A DNA stretch of 64,000 nucleotides from a virus (lineage: Duplodnaviria > Heunggongvirae > Uroviricota > Caudoviricetes): IMG/VR virus record IMGVR_UViG_3300034355_001008. The stretch is one strand, 5' to 3'. The notes under the pieces were generated by a model. It was given only the letters and a program-made list of their open reading frames with translations, was not told the origin of the DNA and made no database searches. Positions 3,231 through 8,232 of this stretch are shown in pieces (within the stretch, counting starts at the first letter, position 1; the number at the start of each line of letters is the position of its first letter). The position numbers were made by a program, and so were the translations under genes.

Positions 3231-3257
3231 AAAGGGAGCTTCGGCTCCCTTTTTTTA
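3231..3257. terminator. bidirectional rho-independent terminator
   Basis: AAAGGGAGC-TTCG-GCTCCCTTT followed by a T run, between the convergent gp32 and tape-measure-like genes. Confidence 0.92.
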
Positions 3258-6200
3258 TGCCATTAATCCACCTTGCGTACTCCACATACTTCCTTCTTCC
3301 ATCATTTTTATAGTTGGATCATCGTTTCTTACCCCAGGAACAGATTTTCCTGTTCCTGCTGGAGCAGGTGGAGGAGGAGTTTGTTGAGCTTGCTGTTGTG
3401 GAGGTGCTGCAGGTTTAGGTGAAGTTTGTCCATTTTGATTTCCTGTTAAATTATTACGTTGTTCGTTTAATGAACTCATTTCTGTGTGAATATCAGATAA
3501 ACGATCTAGTTGTTTATCCATTGTTTCTTTATCAACATTAACTCCAGATTGACCAATTTCATTTCTTTCGTTTTCTAGAGTAGCTTTTTGTCTGTCAATT
3601 TCCGCAACCTGTTCTTCTGTGTCAGTATTTTTTACAGGAGATGCAGTATCTTTTCGACCTTCTAATATGTCACCTGGACCTACTTCTTTGCCATGCCTCA
3701 TATAATATCCAGGTTTTCCTGGAATTGGAGTTGTATGATATTTAGCCAAAGGATCTGGGTTGTTTACTGGATCTTTTTCGTGTGCTTCTGCTGCTTTATC
3801 TAACTCAGTTGGTTGATATTCTTCCGCAGTTCTTGTTGTAACTCCTCCTCCAGTTGTTACTTCTCTATGTTTATTAGTCGTAGTAGTATATTGCGACGTT
3901 TCTATTGTTTCTTTTGGAGAAACATGGTGTTCGTTTGCTGTAGTAACATTTTCCACAGTTTCAACGTATGGGGAAGGGTTTTCTTTGTTTATTCTATTAA
4001 ATTCAATATTATTTCGTTCTCTACTTATTTCACTATTTTTCGCATTTATTTCGTCAACTGTTAGGTTTCCTGGATTTTTAGCAAGTTCTTCTGCTTGTTG
4101 TGCAAGTTCCTCTTCTCTAATTTCATCTGGAGAAGCATTTGACATATCTTTTTTTGGCGCATATCTTGTTGCATGTTCTGTAACAGTTGATGAAGAAGCA
4201 GTTTTTGTCGTTACTTCGTCTTCTGCAGGAACATCATACGGGCTAGATTTTTCCTCTTCTCCTGGAGCTATAAAATATGGATTTCTTGTTCTATCTCCAG
4301 TAAGTTCTACTCCTTTTATTACAGGTTTTGCTGAAGAAGTTTCTTTTTTATCAGGTAAACTTTTACCCATAAGTTTTTCGGCATTTCTTACTCTTTCTGA
4401 AGAATGCCCTCCATGCATACTTGCTGCAGTTATTTCGTATTTTCTTTCAACAGATTTAGCAGCTCCTTCAGCAGTAGTTTGTTTTCGAAGGTCGTTTCCT
4501 GCGCTTTTATGTGAATTATTTAATTCCCAATCTACAAATTCCAACTGATCTTCAAGAGAAGCTCCAACTAAATCTTTATGCATTATTTCTTTAAATTTAG
4601 CTTGGCGATCTGGGTGCCATTGAGCTATCCCTACTGCTTTGCCTCCATCTCCGCGTCTTTCTCCTGATATTACATCTTTGTTAAAATTTCCTGATTCTCC
4701 TTGTAAGTTTCCAACAATTCCTGCAGCTTGTTCTTCTGTATACCCCTTATTCATAAAGAAGTTTTTTGCATATGCTGCTTTATCATCTCCTCCATTTAAT
4801 AACTCAGCTCCAACAACTGCTCCGCCAACTCTTGCTGCTGTTGGAGCAACAGCTTTAGCTGCGCTGCCCGCAGCTTTAGCGCCACCTAAAATTCCTCTTC
4901 CTATTTTTGAGAGTAAGCCAACTTTTTTTGCTGGATTTAGCGCAGAAACAGCAGCTGCGCCTGCAGCTTTAGGGTTAATTTTACCCAATAGTTTTGACCA
5001 GAAACCTTTATCTGCTTCACCCATTCCTCCTTCTTCTCCGCCTAAACCTCCCCCGCCTCCGCCATAAATGGGGGTTGCAGATCCCATTTCATTCTGACGA
5101 GCTTGCATATTTGCAGAATTTAAATCATTTGTAGCATTTTGTTGTGATTGTGATCGCGTTAACGAAGAAACATCTCTAGATATTGAATTAATAGTATCAT
5201 TTGTTTTTGCTAATACATTATAAATTTTATTTAATACTTCAATTGCAGATTTTCCTTGAACGTCTCCGCCACCGAAATGACTTTCACCGATTCTACCAGA
5301 ATCCCCGCCAGAGGGCATTGAATTAAATGTTGACCCAACTGAACCTCCGCCAGTAAATAATGATCCCATCCCTGCACTAATCCCCCTGAATGGATTTGAC
5401 CCCTTTCCAACAGCTGCTCCTAATGCTCCACCTGCTACATCTCCTAATAAATTACCTGCTCCTTTTTTTATATCTTCCCATGCTTCTCCTGGATGATCAA
5501 TTGCATTATCAACCCAATCTACTCCCTTTTGAGCTTTTTCTTGCCATTTGGTTTTTTCTTCGTCAGATAAATTTTCATAATATTCGCCTGCTGGTATTCC
5601 AATAGCAGCACCTAATCCTGCTCCTTTTAATGTAGTTTTACCTAAACTTGCAATTCCACTACCAACAGATTTTGCTCCCTCGACAACCTTTCCGCCAGCC
5701 CAATCTGCGCCCTGAACAATTTTATTTTTAGTCCAATCTGCAACTTTACCAAAAATACTTTGTTCTGGCGGCGGAGTTATTGTTTCTTGAACAGTTTCCG
5801 TCGCTCTTGTTGTGTTACTTCTAAATGGAGTTTCTGTAGCAGTGGAATTTGTTGCAGTTCTTGCTTGCTGCTGTTCTGCTTGCGCTCTTTGAATAGATTC
5901 CTGTGCGCGTTGTTCTCGGGCAGCTGCTCTTGCTGCCCGCTCTGTAGATAATGCTTCGTCTGCTTTATCTGCAGCACTTTTAAATACATTACTTACTTTT
6001 TTTAATGAAGGAATATTTTCGCCAATTACTTCAGCAGCACCCTTAAACAATTTTGGAGCAGCTTTAAATGCAGCTTTACCTGCTGCTCCTCCAAGTGCAG
6101 TAGTAGCAACATCTCCTGCAAAAGATGCTATTGCTCCTCCTTGACCTTTTAATGCTTGGCTATATAATTTTTCTGCACCTTGTCTATCACCAGCAGTTGC

Positions 6201-6425
6201 TGCTTCAACAAATTTCATTGCATCATCAGCGCTGGATATGTATTTTAATTGTTCTTTTTGACTTAAAGTTAAATTATTTAATTTACTTTCTCTTTCAACA
6301 ATCCAATTTCTATCTTTGCTATTTTGACTTACGCGAGAAAATTCATCTTTTGTTTGATTATATGCATTACTTGCATATTCTTTTGCATTATCTAAAAATG
6401 ATGTATCTGAATTATTAGTTGCCAT
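3255..6425 (-). CDS. tape-measure/gp29-like hub protein with phage tail lysozyme (Phage_lysozyme2-like) domain
   Basis: 1056 aa, Ala/Gly-rich and low complexity. Internal GYTEEQAAGIVGNLQGES...GIAQW..DR...QLEFVDWEL muramidase motif. Lies next to the gp26/gp51-like genes. Confidence 0.7.
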   Translation of the reverse strand: MATNNSDTSFLDNAKEYASNAYNQTKDEFSRVSQNSKDRNWIVERESKLNNLTLSQKEQLKYISSADDAMKFVEAATAGDRQGAEKLYSQALKGQGGAIASFAGDVATTALGGAAGKAAFKAAPKLFKGAAEVIGENIPSLKKVSNVFKSAADKADEALSTERAARAAAREQRAQESIQRAQAEQQQARTATNSTATETPFRSNTTRATETVQETITPPPEQSIFGKVADWTKNKIVQGADWAGGKVVEGAKSVGSGIASLGKTTLKGAGLGAAIGIPAGEYYENLSDEEKTKWQEKAQKGVDWVDNAIDHPGEAWEDIKKGAGNLLGDVAGGALGAAVGKGSNPFRGISAGMGSLFTGGGSVGSTFNSMPSGGDSGRIGESHFGGGDVQGKSAIEVLNKIYNVLAKTNDTINSISRDVSSLTRSQSQQNATNDLNSANMQARQNEMGSATPIYGGGGGGLGGEEGGMGEADKGFWSKLLGKINPKAAGAAAVSALNPAKKVGLLSKIGRGILGGAKAAGSAAKAVAPTAARVGGAVVGAELLNGGDDKAAYAKNFFMNKGYTEEQAAGIVGNLQGESGNFNKDVISGERRGDGGKAVGIAQWHPDRQAKFKEIMHKDLVGASLEDQLEFVDWELNNSHKSAGNDLRKQTTAEGAAKSVERKYEITAASMHGGHSSERVRNAEKLMGKSLPDKKETSSAKPVIKGVELTGDRTRNPYFIAPGEEEKSSPYDVPAEDEVTTKTASSSTVTEHATRYAPKKDMSNASPDEIREEELAQQAEELAKNPGNLTVDEINAKNSEISRERNNIEFNRINKENPSPYVETVENVTTANEHHVSPKETIETSQYTTTTNKHREVTTGGGVTTRTAEEYQPTELDKAAEAHEKDPVNNPDPLAKYHTTPIPGKPGYYMRHGKEVGPGDILEGRKDTASPVKNTDTEEQVAEIDRQKATLENERNEIGQSGVNVDKETMDKQLDRLSDIHTEMSSLNEQRNNLTGNQNGQTSPKPAAPPQQQAQQTPPPPAPAGTGKSVPGVRNDDPTIKMMEEGSMWSTQGGLMA

Positions 6426-6632
6426 CTATTGCATATTCCTTTTAGCTTCTTGTTGTTTTCGTCTTTCTTCTTTGTCTTTTAGATACTGCACCAATAAACC
6501 AACATAAACTTCCCTTTCCCAAGGGATCATCTCTTCCAACTCATGTAATCTGTATCCATGATGCTGCATCATGTTAAAATTTGTTTTATAAAAAGTTGTA
6601 AGATCAACATTACCAAGAATTAAATAAAAAAA
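6426..6632 (-). CDS. gp51: gp51-like baseplate/tail assembly ORF (not in the ORF track); probable -1 frameshift extension of the gp26-like gene
   Basis: Open frame FFYLILGNVDLTTFYKTNFNMMQHHGYRLHELEEMIPWEREVYVGLLVQYLKDKEERRKQQEAKRNMQ*. It matches the F..NF.LMQHH.Y.L.E.E.M.PWERE.Y family. The first ATG is only at 6572, and the TAG abuts the ATG at 6425. Confidence 0.8.
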   Translation of the reverse strand, partial: FFYLILGNVDLTTFYKTNFNMMQHHGYRLHELEEMIPWEREVYVGLLVQYLKDKEERRKQQEAKRNMQ

Positions 6633-7345
6633 TCAAAAATATCTCGTACTTCTATAGAATGATCAAATCCGCATTTATTACATTTAATACCTAATTTTTT
6701 AACGATTTTTGGTTCATTTGCAAAAAATTCTTCTATTTTTACATATTTTTCTGGAGGTAATTCTCCAATCCAATCAACAATATTTTGTAATGGAACATCT
6801 TTTGCGCTATAAGCTGAATTATCGTCATAAATAAATTCAACGTTTTTAGCAATTATTTCAAGAATTTGCTGCGGAGTAGGTAATGCATCACCAATAGCAT
6901 CTTTTTCAAATCTTTGATAACGTAATTTTAATCCAACTTTATCTGTTACTTCAATAATAGGAGAAATATCTGGTTTAATTATTTCCAATTCAGTCAAAAG
7001 ATTTAATTCGTGTTCCATAATATTATTACATTTTTTATCTTCTTCTGTTATATTTTCGCATCTATATTTTAATTCAAGGATTTCAGATTCAGATCTTGCT
7101 CGTAATTGATAAAATAAAAATTCAACATCATTTAATGGTAAATCAGCAACTTCTGTTGAATCAACACAACAATTTTGTGCTATTTGAATTATCGCATCAA
7201 CTAATGAATTATTATCTCCTGATTCTTTAGCCATGGCTAGAATCTTTTGTTCTTTTACGTTGTAAGGTCTATATTTTACAGTTAATTCTGATATTGGTAA
7301 TTTAACTGTATATGTTGGCATATCAATTTTTGGTAACAAACTCAT
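6620..7345 (-). CDS. gp26: baseplate hub assembly protein (gp26-like, T4_baseplate family)
   Basis: LPKID.PTY...LP......YRP..VKE.KIL start, CxxC near the C-terminus, ends DFF. Confidence 0.85.
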   Translation of the reverse strand: MSLLPKIDMPTYTVKLPISELTVKYRPYNVKEQKILAMAKESGDNNSLVDAIIQIAQNCCVDSTEVADLPLNDVEFLFYQLRARSESEILELKYRCENITEEDKKCNNIMEHELNLLTELEIIKPDISPIIEVTDKVGLKLRYQRFEKDAIGDALPTPQQILEIIAKNVEFIYDDNSAYSAKDVPLQNIVDWIGELPPEKYVKIEEFFANEPKIVKKLGIKCNKCGFDHSIEVRDIFDFFI

Positions 7346-7362
7346 ATTTTATTAATCCTATT

Positions 7363-8232
7363 TTATCTTAATCCAGATGATATTGTAAAGTTCGACAACC
7401 CAAGATTAGGCAATGTCGATGTCGCAGCTACAGGATTTCCGCTTTTGAAAGCTCCTTTTATGCTATTTATTGTTGCAGCAGTTTGAATTGCTGTTCCTAA
7501 TAATTCTCCTAATGGACCTCGTGAATAGTTCCCAGTTCCTTCTACTGATAAGAAATTGTATGAATATTCTGTGTATGCAAATGTAACATTTAATGATTGG
7601 GCTTCATTTTGAGCTGACCAAGATAATGGTACTTGATTTATTGATACGGGAAATGCATCATATAATGTTACTTCTACCAATGGATCTCCAGTAATAGCAA
7701 AATGTGTAATTTTTACTGTCCCAACATAATCTGCTTTGTATTGTACATTATATGTTGTTTCTTGTACTTTTTTACCTCTATAATTTATAGTTTCTGCTCT
7801 TCCTGTTATAAAAGAAATCCATTTTTGAAAAAATTTTCTAGTAATTTCTACTCCAGATCCTCTTGTATAGAATGCTAATGTAATATCGTTATATCCAGTC
7901 ATAACTGAAAATTTTTCAGTAACTCCATATATTTTCTGTGTTACTGTTGCAGTAGATTCTCCAGGTAATTCTGCAGAATGACATAAAAATGATAAACTTT
8001 TTTCTGATGAACTGCCTCCCGATATAGTAAAATTTCCAGAAGATTGATCGGGGGGTATTTGTGAAAATATTTCAACTTTAAAATATGCAGTTCTACCAAC
8101 ATCATATTTTCTTAATTCAGCTATTCCTTCTGCCATATTATTTTTTGTTGCTGGACCCGACCCATTCATTAAAGTATTAAAACCGCTTTTAATACTTCCG
8201 GCTGTATCTGATAGTGTATCGAAAAATGACAT
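7363..8232 (-). CDS. gp54: baseplate-tail tube initiator (gp54-like, tube fold)
   Basis: LCHSAELPG, Y.DITLAFY and L..AFP.SIN.V.LSW...N....L.VTFAY gp19-like motifs; position between gp2 and gp26. Confidence 0.65.
   Translation of the reverse strand: MSFFDTLSDTAGSIKSGFNTLMNGSGPATKNNMAEGIAELRKYDVGRTAYFKVEIFSQIPPDQSSGNFTISGGSSSEKSLSFLCHSAELPGESTATVTQKIYGVTEKFSVMTGYNDITLAFYTRGSGVEITRKFFQKWISFITGRAETINYRGKKVQETTYNVQYKADYVGTVKITHFAITGDPLVEVTLYDAFPVSINQVPLSWSAQNEAQSLNVTFAYTEYSYNFLSVEGTGNYSRGPLGELLGTAIQTAATINSIKGAFKSGNPVAATSTLPNLGLSNFTISSGLR

Follow-up and report, generated by a model that had tools for sequence, protein, structure and literature searches.

A candidate −1 frameshift linking gp26-like and gp51-like reading frames in T4-like phages

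Long-tailed phages as a rule make a two-form tape-measure chaperone by a −1 frameshift, and T4-like phages have seemed an exception to this rule. The question is raised anew by a locus in a 64,000-nucleotide stretch of Caudoviricetes DNA (IMG/VR record IMGVR_UViG_3300034355_001008, called here the window, at its full length), where a gp26-like gene on the minus strand ends on a run of seven T and a small gp51-like frame opens in the −1 frame at the very same point. Is the small frame a gene of its own, or is it the last part of the gp26-like gene, reached by ribosomes that slip? An earlier note on the window, made from its letters alone, had proposed slipping. From the comparisons given below, we consider it highly probable that a programmed −1 frameshift yields a short form of 241 aa and a long form of 306 aa, corresponding to T4 gp26 and gp51.

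The junction and its proposed decoding

The features that make up the junction are the following:

7345..6620, minus strand: gp26-like gene, short form of 241 aa, with stop TAA at 6622-6620 (PF12322 and phrog_150 matches, AlphaFold model)
6632-6626, minus strand: slippery heptamer U_UUU_UUU in X_XXY_YYZ phase, with Phe239 in the P site and Phe240 in the A site
6635-6633, minus strand: TGA closing the −1 frame immediately 5′ of the heptamer, as read in the −1 translation (F*FFYL...)
6626..6426, minus strand: −1 frame extension of 66 codons (6626-6429) with TAG (6428-6426) (phrog_634, phrog_150, hhalign)
join(7345..6626, 6626..6426), minus strand: predicted long form of 306 aa, base 6626 being read twice after the slip
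6572-6570, minus strand: first ATG in the −1 frame, lying 18 codons past the slip site and without a Shine-Dalgarno motif

The gp26-like gene ends GAT (6634-6632) TTT (6631-6629) TTT (6628-6626) ATT TAA (6622-6620). Past the TGA, the −1 frame reads FFYLILGNVDLTTFYKTNFNMMQHHGY... up to the TAG at 6428-6426, which abuts the ATG (6425) of an open reading frame (ORF) of 1056 aa. The first ATG, GTG or TTG in this frame is the one at 6572 (ORF 6426..6572, 48 aa), and no purine-rich Shine-Dalgarno motif is found in the 24 bases 5′ of it (ACTTTTTATAAAACAAATTTTAAC). Since the TGA at 6635-6633 shuts the −1 frame, initiation upstream of the slip site in that frame is impossible. On direct reading, what the earlier note had described here is real in every detail: the heptamer, the TGA and the TAG next to the ATG lie where it had placed them, its fusion of 240 and 66 residues does come to 306 aa, and the first ATG is indeed without an evident Shine-Dalgarno motif.

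In the proposed mechanism most ribosomes would stop at the TAA at 6622-6620 and give the 241-aa short form, while a fraction of them would slip back by one base, with the tRNA-Phe pair on UUU-UUU of U_UUU_UUU, and would read 66 codons in the −1 frame to give the 306-aa long form. The predicted tryptic junction peptide of the window's long form is DIFDFFYLILGNVDLTTFYK. The C-terminal helix-loop-helix of the long form would then be the piece that databases call a separate small “gp51, baseplate hub assembly catalyst”, and both products would act as non-structural chaperones needed for baseplate hub assembly around the tape-measure protein. The ribosomal nature of the slipping, its efficiency and what each form binds are what we infer.

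Conservation of the slip site and of the −1 frame

The slip site was followed through 125 complete loci with a gp26-family gene, taken from IMG/VR and phage records and representing 76 distinct protein pairs (29 clusters at 70% identity, 11 at 50%). T_TTT_TTY lies in phase in the last codons of 123 of the 125 loci, including relatives at 33% gp26 identity; the combination of a U-run with a gp51-like ORF in the −1 frame, seen by the earlier note in one sequence, is thus kept among the homologues. Only T4, whose best match is gp51 with its extension in frame, and one Ackermannviridae phage depart from this. Of the distinct pairs, 61 have TTTTTTC as the heptamer and 15 have TTTTTTT, the first Phe codon of the run is invariably TTT, and the codon 5′ of the run (AGT, GAT, AAT, GCT, TCT or TTT) varies in the residue encoded while its wobble base is always T. 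A 0-frame stop one codon downstream is the conserved neighbour of the heptamer, and no other was found; the single intervening codon is present in 72 of the 76 pairs.

In the same genes TTT makes up 70.5% of Phe codons and NNT codons about 73%, and the chance of finding T at both free sites is 0.515 per lineage, which comes to some 7e-4 for the 11 clusters and some 4e-9 for the 29. Moreover, the last position of the heptamer is C in 80% of cases, compared with 29.5% TTC among Phe codons elsewhere in these genes. The base that follows is G in nearly all TTTTTTC cases, and the extension then opens with Arg.

Carriers of the site include Pelagibacter phage Mosig, cyanophage S-SZBM1, Vibrio phage KVP40, Sinorhizobium phage phiM7 and Stenotrophomonas phage Ps15, and, outside the set of 125 loci, Aeromonas phages PX29 and avDM6 and Rhizobium phage RHph_I34 (Pootjesviridae). 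In RHph_I34 (locus L136:3170-3190) the site is T_TTT_TTG, the slippery pattern being kept though the 0 frame now encodes Phe-Leu. In avDM6 (L137:3253-3417) AGT TTT TTC is followed by the conserved −1 extension, and since the region 3′ of the gp26-like gene is unannotated, the long form is wholly missing from the record.

Two Ackermannviridae phages lack the full heptamer. The gp26-like gene of Salmonella phage Maynard (L032:3270-3500) ends ...GAA ATT TTC ATT TAA and that of Vibrio phage 1.255.O (L135:3140-3340) ends ...CTT TTT CGC TAA, and in both the −1 frame opens at the end of the gp26-like gene into an ORF that carries a related motif, MPWH. A single-tRNA slip on T_TTY may operate in these two phages. 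In Maynard no tape-measure gene follows the gp26-like gene.

The extension itself carries a strongly conserved motif, YYKTNF, which a pattern search located in 58 of the 67 relatives listed, always at index 11 past the slip and never elsewhere, while the first ATG falls at index 18-19 in 41 of the listed sequences and, in the clade of loci L012-L014, only 32 codons past the slip. In the window this most conserved motif of the extension sits 5′ of the ATG at 6572, so that the family-like FYKTNF segment which the earlier note had placed ahead of the first start is borne out as a family feature, and most homologues have no start codon ahead of the conserved residues. Residues are conserved from the first codon past the slip, and the distance to the motif is fixed.

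Selection on the stretch 5′ of the first ATG was examined in 42 distinct sequences that have no ATG in the first 18 codons past the slip, by counting single-base codon differences in each frame:

−1 frame: 4079 synonymous, 2735 non-synonymous
0 frame: 1364 synonymous, 4506 non-synonymous
+1 frame: 924 synonymous, 5385 non-synonymous

Third-position variability follows the 0 frame 5′ of the heptamer and the −1 frame 3′ of it. On these counts, the 18 codons 5′ of the first ATG behave as protein-coding sequence in the −1 frame alone, and in register with the slip.

This bears directly on the possibility that the gp51-like ORF is a separate small gene, translated from the ATG at 6572, from a near-cognate start or by termination-reinitiation, with the U-run being mere Phe-Phe codons. 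Databases do annotate the ORF as a separate gene, a minority of relatives (KVP40, phiM7, S-SZBM1) have an ATG 1-4 codons past the slip site, overlapping the gp26 stop, and Phe-Phe is conserved even in T4 gp26. Such a gene is nonetheless improbable, since its start at 6572 would leave outside the protein 18 codons on which purifying selection acts in the −1 frame and in which the most conserved motif lies, would lack a Shine-Dalgarno motif and would have moved to codon 32 in L012-L014; nor would it account for conservation that begins at the first post-slip codon and keeps a fixed distance to the motif. Moreover, T4 gp51 has the same segment in frame and collinear, and the heptamer does not vary at its synonymous sites, in contrast to the TTC TTT of T4 gp26.

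Transcriptional slippage, in which the polymerase adds one U on the T-run and so brings a subset of mRNAs into frame, is a further alternative. An extra U on the seven-T homopolymer of the window would give an identical fusion, and the T kept at the preceding wobble position also lengthens the run. Still, 61 of the 76 distinct pairs have six T and then C, an enriched C that shortens the homopolymer, and the run never goes beyond seven in the relatives examined. Characterised bacterial and phage sites of transcriptional slippage usually need about 8-9 A or T. We therefore regard this explanation as very unlikely. An assembly or sequencing error in a homopolymer of an uncultured phage, such runs being error-prone, with the true gene a single in-frame ORF or the extension a decaying remnant, is hardly credible given that the same frame relation recurs in 123 independent loci, finished isolate genomes from many laboratories among them, and in four contigs 91-100% identical to the window, that the extension is under purifying selection and that no longer protein sharing words with the extension was found among 5.8 billion clusters, which is weak evidence. 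One protein of 305 aa (P0058), considered as a natural in-frame fusion, was rejected as an unrelated read-through at a contig end.

Several points weigh against a programmed frameshift, besides two on the fold that are given in the last section. The conserved Phe-Phe motif accounts in part for the phase of the U-run. No more than two synonymous sites can vary, and with AT-rich codon usage both of them are T about half the time. In KVP40, phiM7 and S-SZBM1, with their early ATG, a separately initiated small protein is possible. Folding of 86 and 181 nt around the site of the window gave no stimulatory RNA structure (z −0.27 and −0.15), and RNAalifold found no consensus structure in 63 sequences. 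Taken as a whole, the interpretation of the junction as a putative tail-chaperone-like switch is supported by the comparisons of sequence.

With regard to stimulators, a hairpin of −23.5 to −25.3 kcal/mol (z −7.0 to −8.1 versus shuffles) lies about 5 nt 3′ of the heptamer in the S-SZBM1 lineage (L002:3002-3060, L035), and most other lineages, including that of the window, are without it. Since the hairpin is confined to some lineages, any stimulator would be lineage-specific. A Shine-Dalgarno-like stimulator, GGAGGG about 10 nt upstream, was tried and rejected: 29 of 58 contexts have it, where Glu-Gly codons confound it, and the clade of the window lacks it.

Gene identities and the T4 counterparts

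The short form matches Pfam PF12322 (T4_baseplate) over nearly its whole length (residues 9-240, E 3.6e-47) and phrog_150, “baseplate hub” (E 3.4e-48). With E 1.1e-25, the peptide of 66 aa from the −1 frame falls into phrog_634 (“baseplate hub assembly catalyst”), and it further matches positions 240-281 of phrog_150, its last 40 positions; as the extension matches the end of phrog_150, some members of the gp26 family carry it as their own C-terminus. Four Cys are nearly invariant in the gp26-like family (C96, C106, C222 and C225 in the window); they link a strand pair of the middle region with a C-terminal hairpin, probably as a zinc site, and T4 gp51 retains C85, C88, C185 and C186.

In T4, gp26 (208 aa) and gp51 (249 aa) are hub assembly chaperones absent from the virion (Leiman et al. 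2010, PMC3004832, Table 2), each described as a protein that is essential but has no known function (PMC3004832). Genes 26 and 51 lie on opposite strands, and both encode full PF12322 proteins that are about 20% identical. T4 gp51 matches PF12322 over residues 1-201 (E 3.9e-52) and carries about 48 further in-frame residues matching phrog_634. In the multiple alignment the short forms end x-F-F-x, and gp51 runs on in frame from there. By hhalign, the short-form family of the window falls on columns 6-202 of the gp51-type long form (probability 96.5%, E 8e-10) and the extension family on columns 202-250 (probability 95.7%, E 1e-8), the two segments being contiguous on it, end to end. The pairs are thus alike in belonging to PF12322, the short form of the window resembling gp26 and the short form plus extension resembling gp51 with gapless collinearity. 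They differ in that T4 has two diverged genes and no slippery site, whereas phages of the window type have one gene and the frameshift.

The gene counts follow this division. Complete genomes of Mosig, S-SZBM1, KVP40 and phiM7 have one PF12322 gene each and T4 has two; the 64,000 nt of the window hold one PF12322 ORF, and the single-gene state is found in the Kyanoviridae, KVP40, Aeromonas, Rhizobium and Sinorhizobium phages examined. Phe-Phe of T4 gp26 is encoded as GAG TTC TTT, which is non-slippery and serves as a natural control, and a 58%-identical relative has GAG TTT TTT with a −1 frame that is closed at once. About 1375 records, of phages with enterobacterial, Acinetobacter or some Aeromonas hosts, contain the in-frame long form, and at least 539, chiefly of cyanophages, vibriophages and pelagiphages, contain the small −1 ORF. 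The records inspected either give the pair as two distinct genes or leave the small ORF out. The gp51-type long forms P0116-P0213 carry a second precomputed family, PF28602.1, beside PF12322, which presumably covers the C-terminal extension.

T4 itself does not frameshift, gp51 being a hard-wired long form, and two solutions would exist for making the same protein pair. The earlier note had raised the possibility, for T4-like gp26/gp51 pairs in general, that they are frameshifted chaperones. Since T4 has separate genes 26 and 51, this holds for the non-Tevenvirinae T4-like phages, with their conserved slip site, and fails for T4 itself.

The genes on both sides of the pair are:

8232..7363, minus strand: upstream tube-fold gene, gp54-like, 289 aa (phrog_45, Phage_TTP_2)
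6425..3255, minus strand: downstream tape-measure-like gene, 1056 aa (phrog_9570, Phage_lysozyme2)

The upstream gene matches phrog_45, tail tube (E 6e-25), and Pfam Phage_TTP_2 (E 1.4e-6), and a syntenic ORF of comparable size lies directly 5′, at the position of the tube-fold gene, in 19 of 20 sampled relatives. The downstream protein matches phrog_9570, tail length tape measure protein (E 2.1e-29), and internally, over residues 549-686, Phage_lysozyme2 (E 2.4e-26); it also has long Ala/Gly-rich and Gln/Pro-rich low-complexity stretches. Because pairwise BLAST gave no similarity to T4 gp29, nor to the KVP40 protein at the same position, its tape-measure role is suggested by size, position and composition. 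The order that the earlier note had read, with the tube-fold gp54-like gene, chaperone, extension and tape-measure-like gene in succession, is seen in the window and in relatives.

Fold and comparison with tail assembly chaperones

By sequence, a Pfam scan of the short form with E up to 0.1 gave PF12322 alone and no tail assembly chaperone family, and a sequence-profile search of the PDB gave no match. The short form was modelled with AlphaFold (pLDDT 90.3), and the model was aligned against 48,161 PDB representative chains, with the following first ranks:

Rank 1: 3fgx, Geobacillus Rbstp2171, Z 7.7, rmsd 4.0, 85 residues aligned
Rank 2: 3klu, B. subtilis YqbN, Z 6.9, rmsd 4.7, 86 residues aligned
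Rank 3: 2ob9, HK97 gp13 tail assembly chaperone, Z 6.8, rmsd 4.0, 83 residues aligned

All three cover residues 1-96 of the model, and the next, unrelated chain has Z 4.5. These are the three known tail assembly chaperone structures (PMC9603447), and the structural comparison with gpG/GT-type chaperones proposed in the earlier note gave independent support to its lambda G/GT analogy as far as the short form is concerned. The match is middling (Z < 8), and a model of a T4-type gp51 (pLDDT 91.6) has no tail assembly chaperone chain in its top 50, these consisting of generic hits on the C-terminal helices and on the middle domain. In the gp51 model the extension forms helices 208-221, 226-230 and 234-248, which find only generic helix-loop-helix matches. 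Because of the middling Z and the gp51 model without a match, we take the modelled fold as good support for a protein that works like G/GT and not as proof of common descent. The solved chaperones (HK97 gp13, YqbN and Rbstp2171) superpose on residues 1-96 of the model, yet they are 10-13% identical to it and are single-domain proteins of about 100-120 aa. Complex prediction of the extension with the upstream tube-like protein scored 0.00, which is uninformative either way.

A full-text literature search, with subscription journals largely outside its scope, found no report of a gp26/gp51 frameshift, and the present case would add to the known frameshifted tail assembly chaperones. On balance we lean towards a wider scheme, in which gp26/gp51 would be the missing T4-superfamily counterpart of G/GT, the frameshift would be ancestral across Kyanoviridae, many Straboviridae, Pootjesviridae and relatives, T4 genes 26 and 51 would come from a later duplication that hard-wired both products, and the ratio set by slipping would control the assembly of hub and tape measure. 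The frameshift would give the vaguely understood gp26 and gp51 of T4 a place in a known scheme, and would explain the tiny “gp51” without start signals in hundreds of cyanophage, pelagiphage and vibriophage genomes; at least 539 records would mis-annotate or omit a product of about 300 aa. Moreover, one gene with slippage and two genes without it would form a natural experiment on why the ratio of chaperone forms matters.

A conserved −1 frameshift in tail assembly chaperone genes, that of lambda gpG/gpGT, was reportedly described by Xu, Hendrix and Duda in 2004, and in P2 E/E+E′ the frameshift takes place on a T-run. Compared with G/GT, the protein of the window falls in no Pfam tail assembly chaperone family and is larger, with about 150 residues past the chaperone-like domain and with its four nearly invariant Cys. 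It has a short extension, a helix-loop-helix of 66 aa, a single codon separates the heptamer from the 0-frame stop, and the T4 members of the family act in hub assembly, not on a siphophage tail initiator. In the G/GT kind the two products come at a fixed ratio, the G part binding the tape measure and the T part the tube protein; the chaperone of the window would act on the tape measure, with a putative partner for the extension. What the two systems have in common is a slippery heptamer near the 3′ end of the chaperone gene, an ORF downstream of it that lies in the −1 frame and lacks its own start signals, two products, short and long, that share their N-terminal part, a gene placed between those of the tube fold and the tape measure (the latter here by its inferred identity) and, in the model, the tail assembly chaperone fold of the N-terminal domain. 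By position, predicted decoding mechanism and modelled N-terminal fold, the gp26/gp51 pair is thus a putative T4-superfamily counterpart of lambda G/GT and P2 E/E+E′.

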